From a virus, in the IMG/VR virus record IMGVR_UViG_3300045988_100167, positions 1 through 39,497 of that record: 39,497 bases of DNA, one strand, 5' to 3'. Below, in pieces: positions 7,271-7,764 of the stretch (position 1 is its first letter; every line of letters starts with the position of its first letter). The translations under genes and the position numbers were made by a program. The notes below the pieces were generated by a model. The model was given only the letters and a program-made list of their open reading frames with translations. It was not told where the DNA came from and made no database searches.

Positions 7271-7663
7271 ATGGGAGGAAGAGGTGCAAGTTCAGGGATA
7301 AGTAATAATGGGCACATATATGGAACAGACTATAAAACAATAATAAAATCTGGGAATATAAAGTTCGTAAAGAAAACCTCTAATCAGTCAGAAACGATAA
7401 TGGAAACAATGACAAAAGGAAGAGTATATGTAAATGTTAATAGTAAAGGAAAATTAACATCTATAACATATTTTGATAAAGATAATAAAAGAAAAAAACA
7501 AATAGATTTGACACACAAACATAAGAAAGAAATTCCACATACACATCATGGATATATACATAATGAGAATGACACAGAAAAAGGGGCAAGCAAATTAACC
7601 ACCAAAGAAAAAAGAATGGTTGATAGAATTAATAAAATATGGTATAATTATAATAATAAATAG
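7271..7663 (+). CDS. hypothetical basic, His-rich protein starting MGGRGASS (second of a pair)
   Basis: 130-aa ORF with an AGGAGAAAAA RBS. Its 3' end contains a promoter-like element, and its stop codon overlaps the 5' end of the tRNA-like RNA. Confidence 0.6.
   Translation: MGGRGASSGISNNGHIYGTDYKTIIKSGNIKFVKKTSNQSETIMETMTKGRVYVNVNSKGKLTSITYFDKDNKRKKQIDLTHKHKKEIPHTHHGYIHNENDTEKGASKLTTKEKRMVDRINKIWYNYNNK
7620..7648 (+). promoter_or_regulatory. sigma-A-type promoter TTGATA, 17-nt spacer, TGg-TATAAT, positioned to start transcription at the tRNA-like RNA
   Basis: -35 at 7620-7625, 17-nt spacer, TG at 7640-7641 and TATAAT at 7643-7648. The predicted start lies about 7-8 nt downstream, near 7656. 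Confidence 0.5.
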
Positions 7664-7723
7664 GAGTTAGTAAGGAAAAACACTCATTCATGGGAGTTCT
7701 GGGTTCGAGTCCTAGCTATTTAT
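7657..7723 (+). ncRNA. non-canonical tRNA-like RNA (about 67 nt)
   Basis: Perfect 7-bp acceptor pairing TAAATAG (7657-7663) with CTATTTA (7716-7722). Canonical T arm CTGGG-TTCGAGT-CCTAG (7699-7715) and a 3-bp D stem with GG in the loop. The anticodon arm has only 4 bp (7682-7685 with 7694-7697), closes an 8-nt loop ATTCATGG, and is separated from the T stem by 1 nt. Confidence 0.45.
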
Positions 7724-7727
7724 TATA

Positions 7728-7764
7728 AGAGAGTACCATATATAGGTATTCTCTATTATTATTT
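7728..7764 (+). terminator. rho-independent terminator after the tRNA-like RNA
   Basis: 9-bp stem AGAGAGTAC/GTATTCTCT (one G-U pair) with a 9-nt loop, followed by the T-rich stretch ATTATTATTT. Confidence 0.55.

Follow-up and report, generated by a model that had tools for sequence, protein, structure and literature searches.

The window analysed here comprises positions 1-39,497 (39,497 nucleotides, nt) of IMG/VR virus record IMGVR_UViG_3300045988_100167; all window coordinates refer to this record, and the features described lie on its plus strand. At positions 7653-7766 it very probably encodes a non-decoding small RNA derived from transfer RNA (tRNA), a divergent member of the F41/SpF41 family (Rfam RF02435) that is joined at its 3' end to a terminator hairpin. 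Judged by the sequence comparisons given below, F41/SpF41 represents a single branch within a large family of tRNA mimics that lack an anticodon and whose fold is supported by covariation. The family resides in phages of Streptococcus, Clostridia and Lachnospiraceae and in satellite-like elements, where it occupies the boundary between early and packaging genes and is usually attached to one conserved gene, phrog_9479. The tRNA-mimic nature, the distribution over phages and satellites, and the constant location at the start of the packaging operon are all new for F41/SpF41. As to function, we tentatively propose, with rather more doubt than belief, that the unit is a promoter-proximal leader and terminator of the packaging operon, the terminated product of which would accumulate as a tRNA-mimic small RNA (sRNA). 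Identity and leader mechanism, taken together, make up what we consider the best explanation, one that we find plausible with somewhat less than even confidence.

The preliminary description of this DNA had proposed a self-contained gene for a non-canonical tRNA-like molecule. Its observation of a promoter, a tRNA-like element and a terminator is confirmed (Table 1), and the archetype F41 is a discrete transcript of about 103 nt (PMC3395615, PMC7196914). The promoter stands exactly where it had been placed and scores 11 of 12, plus the TG extension, in a consensus scan. It also belongs, as had been suggested, to a recurrent type: allowing up to two mismatches, TTGAYA-N14-TGNTATAAT has 17 matches in the window against 4.8 expected, and the promoter of the RNA is one of the three with no mismatch. 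It is spelled by the final codons of the phrog_9479 open reading frame (ORF; M V D R I N K I W Y N Y N N K, then stop), whose TAG (7661-7663) falls inside the acceptor helix of the RNA; the promoter spacing predicts a transcript start at about 7655. Downstream of the tRNA-like element (7653-7726), the terminator, with hairpin arms AGAGAGTACC and GGTATTCTCT (7728-7754) followed by the tail ATTATTATTTCT, begins 5 nt after the part closed by the 7-base-pair (bp) acceptor, again as described. The small terminase subunit gene terS has its start codon just 16 nt beyond the U tract, so close that a promoter would not fit between them.

In a permissive Rfam scan of positions 7550-7850, model positions 1-105 of SpF41_sRNA (RF02435) aligned to 7651-7760 with 35.6 bits (E 3.3e-4), a match that spans both the tRNA-like part and the terminator and that lies below the gathering score of 52 bits. 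A close relative, L183 (related loci are given by handles of this form), reaches 41 bits on the same model. The Rfam tRNA model RF00005 scored 29.1 bits (E 2.7e-4; gathering score 29), in the 301-nt search only, and was absent from the whole-window run. The preliminary description had pointed to covariance models and to ARAGORN; the former returned these two matches and the latter made no call. ARAGORN finds tRNA-Trp, tRNA-Gln and tRNA-Cys in the window and not the element, does not call the family RNA in 14 related loci, and makes no transfer-messenger RNA (tmRNA) call in those loci or in the window. A covariance model of our own, built from eight unedited family members that pass the threshold, matches the window at 7654-7724 (21.9 bits, E 4.7e-4 in 379 kb). 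The architecture and genomic module of the window copy are those of the threshold-passing members (A25, phiST1, Javan23, Dorea and Jekyll; 53-103 bits).

The covariation set comprised 50 distinct sequences aligned to the model, a fitting that inflates pairing somewhat, and paired cells reach 92.0% compared with 70.0% after column shuffling and 34-50% when the partners are slid. The covariation score is 0.577, as against 0.19 for shuffled and 0.07-0.12 for slid alignments, and none of 500 shuffles attained the observed score. Compensatory changes affecting both sides are found in 18 of the 21 pairs. The T helix is 100% paired (4 of 5 pairs compensatory), helix 3 is 99% paired (4 of 4) and the D helix 88% (3 of 4), while the acceptor strands differ yet stay complementary lineage by lineage; each of the four helices is supported. 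Since compensatory changes affect all four helices in hosts ranging from Streptococcus to Lachnospiraceae, the fold is under purifying selection, and the frequent U-G pairs assign the structure to the transcribed strand.

In outline, the family cloverleaf consists of an acceptor, a U8-like spacer, a D stem of 3-5 bp, one spacer base, a third helix, a variable region of 4-5 nt and a T arm. The acceptor ranges over 6-11 bp, is bulged in some members and is highly variable in sequence. The third helix has 4 bp and usually carries the tetraloop GAUR, or UUCA/UUUA in the subgroup of the window; in other members (L045, L061, Javan174/91/254) an insertion of 30-170 nt takes the place of the tetraloop. 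The window RNA shares with SpF41 the acceptor-like helix, hairpin, T arm and terminator over model positions 1-105, and differs from it in having UUCA instead of GAUR and a continuous 11-bp acceptor instead of a bulged one. With canonical tRNA (RF00005) it shares the acceptor, D and T arms, a TTCGAGT T-loop with G53-C61, GG in the D loop and a 4-nt variable region. It departs from canonical tRNA in lacking a 7-nt anticodon loop, in its 11-bp acceptor, in the absence of an encoded CCA and in drawing no call from ARAGORN; the archetype F41 departs further, in that its stable RNA retains the terminator hairpin. The canonical T arm, the short D arm and the missing CCA had all been recognised beforehand, and the three real tRNAs of the window do encode CCA.

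The perfect 7-bp acceptor stem originally described, TAAATAG/CTATTTA (7657-7663/7716-7722), stands as the core of a longer helix that continues without interruption to 11 bp (7653-7663/7716-7726), its base pairs 8 and 10 showing compensatory changes in L025 and L183. The third helix can be drawn in two mutually exclusive ways: as the 4-bp stem ACTC/GAGT (7682-7685/7694-7697) closing the 8-nt loop ATTCATGG, which is the form first put forward, or as CTCA/TGGG around the tetraloop TTCA. The comparison covered seven close relatives (the window, L020, L021, L024, L025, L026 and L183). An A to G change at 7682 in L020 and L183 keeps the 8-nt-loop fold as a G-U pair, and a G to A change in L026 turns a U-G pair of the tetraloop fold into U-A; C and U vary within the loop, giving the forms ATTCATGG, ATTTATGG and ATTTATGA. 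Only the tetraloop fold leaves a position-26 spacer and a 4-nt variable region, as in the rest of the family and in real tRNAs. The family fold thus has its homologue in CTCA-TTCA-TGGG followed by AGTT as the variable region; the 4-bp stem with its 8-nt loop can be drawn but is not the family form. A further pairing noted at the outset, of ACTC (7682-7685) with GAGT at 7664-7667, exists and is chosen by the single-sequence minimum-free-energy fold.

Two observations on other members concern the same fold. T-loops with G or A at position 56 (TTGAAAT, TGGAAAT, TTAGAAT) co-occur with D-loops ending in UGA, a possible sign of a 19:56 tertiary pair and of a genuine L-shape. The insertions split the tetraloop between GAU and N, at about 1885-2150 in L016 (Javan174), 1880-2100 in L017 (Javan91) and 1880-2050 in L019 (Javan254); inserts of the Javan174, Javan91 and Javan254 types and of the L045/L061 types have no Rfam match.

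F41, or SpF41, was hitherto recorded only as a strain-specific sRNA of pneumococci, for which virulence phenotypes but no mechanism had been described. In S. pneumoniae TIGR4, F41 (srn277) is a 103-nt transcript by Northern blot that needs no phage induction for its expression, and deleting it attenuated sepsis (PMC3395615). It is present in just 4 of 385 pneumococcal genomes (PMC12323649) and, in S. agalactiae, in 2 of 27 genomes, in "exclusive" regions only (PMC6064168). In Grad-seq it occurs in low-molecular-weight fractions and is not ribosome-associated; it pulls down RNase Z, as unrelated csRNAs also do, and the 3' exonuclease Cbf1 (PMC7196914). It is likewise the top noncoding RNA in Cbf1 cross-linking and immunoprecipitation (CLIP) and is longer in a cbf1 mutant, that is, its 3' end is trimmed by Cbf1 (PMC7196914). 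The stable form of about 103 nt retains the terminator hairpin (PMC3395615, PMC7196914). Neither a tRNA shape nor a phage or satellite origin is described in the literature retrieved on F41, and the present results reframe its pneumococcal phenotypes as mobile-element effects.

The same module of gene, promoter, RNA and terminator recurs in cultured phages (Table 1) and in about 100 IMG/VR contigs. Among the first IMG/VR loci found via phrog_9479, 10 of 10 have the -35 and -10 boxes in the same codons, the tRNA-like element and the terminator. In about 90 of 95 sources, our own model places the RNA directly after the phrog_9479 gene; the others are window-type copies seen by eye, large-insert variants and truncated contigs. 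A search from the side of the RNA, using an 18-nt core pattern with the promoter left out, returned 77 contigs: phrog_9479 lies directly upstream in 66, four are too short to judge, one is false and six have the RNA without phrog_9479, which amounts to 66 of the 72 informative matches with the gene immediately upstream. The six copies lacking phrog_9479 carry their own promoter, and five of them lie in elements of 8-11 kb. In L112, the one such element to be fully annotated, replication genes of the DnaD/DnaC type accompany an integrase gene and a terS-like gene that shares 31% identity with the gene occupying the terS position of L021; by this gene content L112 is a satellite-like element, resembling the phage-inducible chromosomal islands (PICIs). 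In an Rfam scan of L112, L116, L138 and L177, these four gave the highest SpF41 scores (94-117 bits), and stand-alone units in satellite-like elements are probably the context of pneumococcal F41 itself.

The phrog_9479 proteins follow the pattern MGGRGASSG...PHTHHGYxHNE...MVxxVxKxWYN and fall into 1164 clusters at 90% identity, with 349 representatives at 50% identity. Pfam recognises no domain in phrog_9479 or in the adjoining MGGRG protein of the window. The AlphaFold model of phrog_9479 is confident (pLDDT 84.3) and consists of a beta sheet and a C-terminal helix; its viral structural matches are weak ones only, to a 'minor capsid protein' and the like. At the nucleotide level, a megablast search of 6800-8800 against cultured phages gave no match, and a distant blastn search with the element alone gave trivial short matches only.

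Several side observations concern these loci. Tandem tRNA-like units stand behind one phrog_9479 gene in L029/L030/L033 (1883-2031), L063/L075/L076 (1883-1970 and 2141-2213), L012 (2870-3027) and L086 (about 2080); the units, which have unlike central hairpins, either abut directly or are separated by about 170 nt. The N-terminus MGGRG(A/G)(S/R)... recurs, like a shared tag, in otherwise unlike small proteins from genes near the RNA; such proteins are encoded in the window at 6944-7261 and 7271-7663 and after the RNA in L006, L010, L039, L049 and L083, and the GGRG motif was not found in the MuF polymorphic-toxin paper. Streptococcal phages (L011, which is A25, at 3000-3104; L014; L015; L019) have a second conserved unit between the RNA terminator and terS, in which a promoter-like box (GTAAAAC.TCCCC...TATAAAATG) precedes a 10-bp hairpin, and the T-run after the hairpin directly adjoins the ribosome site of terS.

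The proposal of a leader starts from position. In most lineages the start of the next gene (terS, terL or one for an MGGRG protein) follows the RNA at a distance of 53-67 nt (window, L001, L002, L007, L010, L012, L020, L021, L036, L058, L083, L085, L089, L093, L101), and in these loci the ribosome site lies no more than 25 nt past the terminator, with no space for a promoter. The additional hairpin and T-run directly before terS in streptococcal phages belong to the same kind of layout. Expression of the packaging block must therefore cross the terminator. The late-control region of phage lambda has the order Q gene, PR', 6S RNA, tR', late genes. The loci described here present a comparable series of a small gene, a constitutive-looking promoter, a short terminated transcript, a terminator and late genes, with no intervening promoter; phrog_9479 occupies the position of Q, and the short RNA is made without phage induction, as F41 is in TIGR4. 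To our knowledge, the lambda 6S RNA has no selected fold, whereas that of the family RNA is strongly selected, and from this difference we infer that the shape is a signal for protein recognition or processing. As for the protein, phrog_9479 has no significant match to any solved structure, Q included (best PDB E 0.22), and antitermination at the present loci is conjectural.

In the mechanism that we propose, the near-consensus sigma-A promoter in the last phrog_9479 codons would drive transcription, and most transcripts would end at the terminator and persist as a stable, tRNA-shaped sRNA. Polymerases that read through, presumably under regulation, would express terS, terL and the portal gene. 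The tRNA shape would be recognised by a protein, phrog_9479 or another phage factor, or else a host enzyme that binds or processes tRNA, and the bound protein would set the level of read-through, the processing of the RNA, or both. Stand-alone copies in satellites may act in trans on the same partner; their presence in elements with integrase, DnaD/DnaC and terS-like genes is what we count as a capacity to act in trans. This leader model offers a hypothesis for late-gene switching in a widespread group of phages without a recognised late activator, and phage A25 in S. pyogenes and F41 in TIGR4 are tractable systems in which to pursue it.

Several findings weigh against this combined account. 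The promoter looks constitutive, so the leader model requires a regulator, and the phrog_9479 model, compared with the PDB by Foldseek, has a best E of 0.22 and matches no Q, N or RNA-binding fold. The window terminator, with its interrupted U tract, may just be leaky. Further promoter-like boxes follow the RNA in satellite-like elements and streptococcal phages, where the unit is not a simple leader, and the tandem copies (L029/30/33, L063/75/76, L012), together with the tRNA-Met neighbouring the RNA in the Dorea phage, resemble an array of trans-acting, tRNA-type genes. The single-sequence folding energy of the window RNA is unremarkable (z -1.19), the method being uninformative for an AT-rich RNA. 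A more specific form of the leader model makes the cloverleaf the cis element of a novel Firmicutes antitermination switch for late genes, in which phrog_9479, a candidate by position, or a host tRNA-binding factor would bind the nascent RNA and let polymerase pass the terminator, the satellite units being trans decoys that sense or sabotage the switch of the helper. We regard this elaboration as speculative and quite unlikely.

The strongest rival to the leader model holds that the RNA acts purely in trans, as a tRNA mimic that titrates a host factor reading the elbow or acceptor, the location ahead of terS being incidental. Possible targets include RNase Z, RNase P, the CCA-adding enzyme and a defence toxin that modifies the acceptor end. 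Such a role would suit the stand-alone copies that satellite-like elements carry complete with promoter and terminator, the tandem copies, and the conservation of the D-loop/T-loop elbow with its possible 19:56 tertiary covariation. In pull-downs F41 also captures RNase Z, it is highly abundant in Cbf1 CLIP (PMC7196914), and its deletion gives pneumococcal phenotypes (PMC3395615, PMC7196914). RNase Z, however, is recovered with unrelated csRNAs as well (PMC7196914), and stable F41 keeps its terminator hairpin, so that the 3' end of the acceptor is not free for CCA addition or for toxins acting on that end. The acceptor varies widely in sequence and length (6-11 bp, with bulges), and a trans role leaves unexplained why the terminator lies right against the next gene in most lineages. 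We consider this rival possible but on balance unlikely; nothing relevant was found in the literature on a phage tRNA-like decoy or anti-defence RNA of this type.

RNAs that keep the acceptor, T arm and elbow of tRNA after losing decoding are familiar from the tRNA-like domain of tmRNA, from bacterial YrlA, from mammalian mascRNA and from the tRNA-like RNAs of MHV68. All of these differ from the present family in ending at a processed CCA end, where the family RNA ends in a terminator hairpin. The insertions of Javan174, Javan91 and Javan254, between the D region and the T arm, have the topology of tmRNA; the window RNA, in contrast, has A-T at 3:70 and not G3-U70, has no tag ORF and draws no tmRNA call from ARAGORN. 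A Ro/Rsr neighbour was not seen at the family loci. Readings of the RNA as tmRNA-like, T-box-related, a type III antitoxin or an integration site were dropped, their defining features being absent.

A ribonucleoprotein or packaging cofactor, loosely comparable to the pRNA of phi29, would place the RNA in a complex with phrog_9479 or another MGGRG protein that acts in head assembly or DNA packaging, the copies of satellites serving to hijack it. The tight coupling of gene and RNA (66 of the 72 informative RNA-first matches) would fit such a complex, as would the fact that the RNA is never more than one gene from terS, in phages and satellite-like elements alike, and the weak resemblance of the phrog_9479 model to part of a 'minor capsid protein' in BFVD (E 4.8e-4, TM 0.46). 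The coupling, however, is partly forced by the promoter inside the ORF, six elements have the RNA without phrog_9479, and Foldseek detected no RNA-binding fold. Terminase-type phages, moreover, are not known to require an RNA, and we judge this reading improbable.

The preliminary description had drawn attention to expanded anticodon loops as a mark of +1 frameshift suppressors, in a genome seeming to need +1 events. The breaks themselves are borne out. The window is 28% G+C, no long ORF contains an uninterrupted in-frame CGG, and six junctions from frame 0 to frame +1 lie at CGG (6057, 8207, 8913, 14964, 22769 and 23697). At each, an ORF stops a few codons after an in-frame CGG and resumes in the +1 frame from the GGA or GGT within, the fourth base at the shift sites being A or T. 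The interrupted genes are ParB/DUF4417, TerL (twice) and three structural genes; one junction, ...NLKV/GARRCGKT..., crosses the Walker A motif of TerL. Three of the sites recur in the independently assembled L020 (1156, 3438, 4144), and in L025 (3857) and L001 (4365), whose TerL belongs to a different family, the break lies at a GGT-CGG-AAA site. A tblastn search with the L021 large terminase gave no match, the L021 TerL being of another family, and frame translations were used instead. On these translations, the breaks look like programmed or obligatory +1 shifting at hungry or unassigned CGG codons.

That the RNA is the decoder concerned, a tRNA with an 8-nt anticodon loop suppressing these breaks, or else a divergent tRNA(CAU/UCA), is very improbable. 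In its favour are the junctions themselves and the ACTC/GAGT stem, which can be drawn with an 8-nt loop on a tRNA-like body, much as in sufD/sufB-type suppressors, and which survives the A to G change of L020 and L183 as G-U. The G to A change in L026, however, fits the tetraloop fold, and near-identical phages differ in the letters of the putative anticodon, which is unlike the behaviour of a decoder. Nor is the loop complementary to the shift site, the preliminary description having been right on this point: AUUCAUGG contains no UCCG with which to read CGGA. A decoder would moreover have its variable region reduced to 1 nt, an 11-bp acceptor helix and no CCA; ARAGORN does not call it, the family has a tetraloop or a large insert in place of a 7-nt anticodon loop on a 5-bp stem, and the archetype F41 is not ribosome-associated in Grad-seq (PMC7196914). 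RNA and breaks also fail to coincide. L001 has a CGG break in TerL with an ordinary GATA-tetraloop RNA, the phages A25, Dorea and Jekyll carry the RNA together with 4-20 in-frame CGG codons, and L021, L024 and L188 have a window-type RNA and no break in the sequence examined. The RNA is thus uncoupled from the CGG events, which need another explanation. A decoy for anticodon nucleases, also suggested earlier, is unlikely in an RNA with no anticodon loop.

Equally hard to credit is a remnant, either a piece of a host tRNA gene of the attP type or a functionless, decaying phage tRNA pseudogene. Fragments of tRNA genes are common at phage attachment sites, and the element is clearly tRNA-derived by its score on the tRNA model. 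A degenerate 31-nt pattern of its 3' half, however, matched no tRNA gene in 185,579 species genomes; its only two matches lie in two contigs of one Clostridia metagenome-assembled genome (MAG), both with the -35 and -10 boxes, the RNA, the terminator and the start of an MGGR... gene. The element has its own perfect promoter and terminator, and its four helices undergo compensatory change across hosts. No integrase was found near it by PHROGs among the ORFs at 6037-10923, the part of the window scanned for integrase, and every window ORF of at least 130 residues is on the plus strand.

Table 1. The RNA locus of the window, cultured phages with the same module, and stand-alone units in other elements.
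Feature	Position	Strand	Remarks
phrog_9479 gene, conserved 130-residue protein	7271..7663	+	PHROGs match, E 3.9e-53
Sigma-A promoter: -35 TTGATA (7620-7625), 17-nt spacer ending in TGG, extended -10 TGgTATAAT in codons W-Y-N (TATAAT, 7643-7648)	7620..7648	+	
Acceptor-like helix, 5' strand: 7-bp core 7657-7663, extension 7653-7656	7653..7663	+	Compensatory changes in L025/L183
D arm: stem GTT/AAC (7666-7668/7679-7681), loop AGTAAGGAAA with GG	7666..7681	+	
Truncated 'anticodon' arm: A26, CTCA-TTCA-TGGG (7683-7694), variable region AGTT (7695-7698)	7682..7698	+	Family-consistent fold
Truncated 'anticodon' arm, mutually exclusive alternative: ACTC-ATTCATGG-GAGT	7682..7697	+	
T arm, CTGGG-TTCGAGT-CCTAG	7699..7715	+	
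Acceptor-like helix, 3' strand, no CCA after	7716..7726	+	
Intrinsic terminator: 10-bp hairpin (one G-U) and interrupted U tract ATTATTATTTCT	7728..7766	+	Included in Rfam SpF41 model
Ribosome-binding site AGGGAGGAG and terS (7783-8154)	7767..8154	+	First packaging/structural gene
RNA of Streptococcus phage A25			SpF41 99.6 bits
RNA of phiST1			SpF41 103.1 bits
RNA of Javan23			SpF41 94.7 bits
RNA of Dorea phage DO134P1			SpF41 71.8 bits; genuine tRNA-Met follows RNA
RNA of Roseburia phage Jekyll			SpF41 53.5 bits; two units in tandem
Stand-alone promoter-RNA-terminator unit, L112	7479..7581		
Stand-alone unit, L116	7151..7261		
Stand-alone unit, L138	922..1024	-	
Stand-alone unit, L158			
Stand-alone unit, L177	10607..10709		

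Some minor observations concern individual elements. L138 carries, 43 nt downstream of its SpF41 copy and on the same strand, a skipping-rope RNA (RF02924, 68 bits; 802-879, minus strand); L177 also has a match to the SpF01 sRNA, and L116 contains CRISPR repeats. L020, the closest relative of the window phage, has a NUMOD4/NUMOD1 homing-endonuclease-like gene (4644-5219) between TerL and the portal gene, which is absent from that place in the window. Finally, 27-nt tandem repeats occupy both ends of the window, at 1-299 (11 copies) and 39322-39497 (6.5 copies), and are in phase with one long ORF; the window probably represents a complete genome, circularly permuted and cut inside a gene with a 9-residue repeat.

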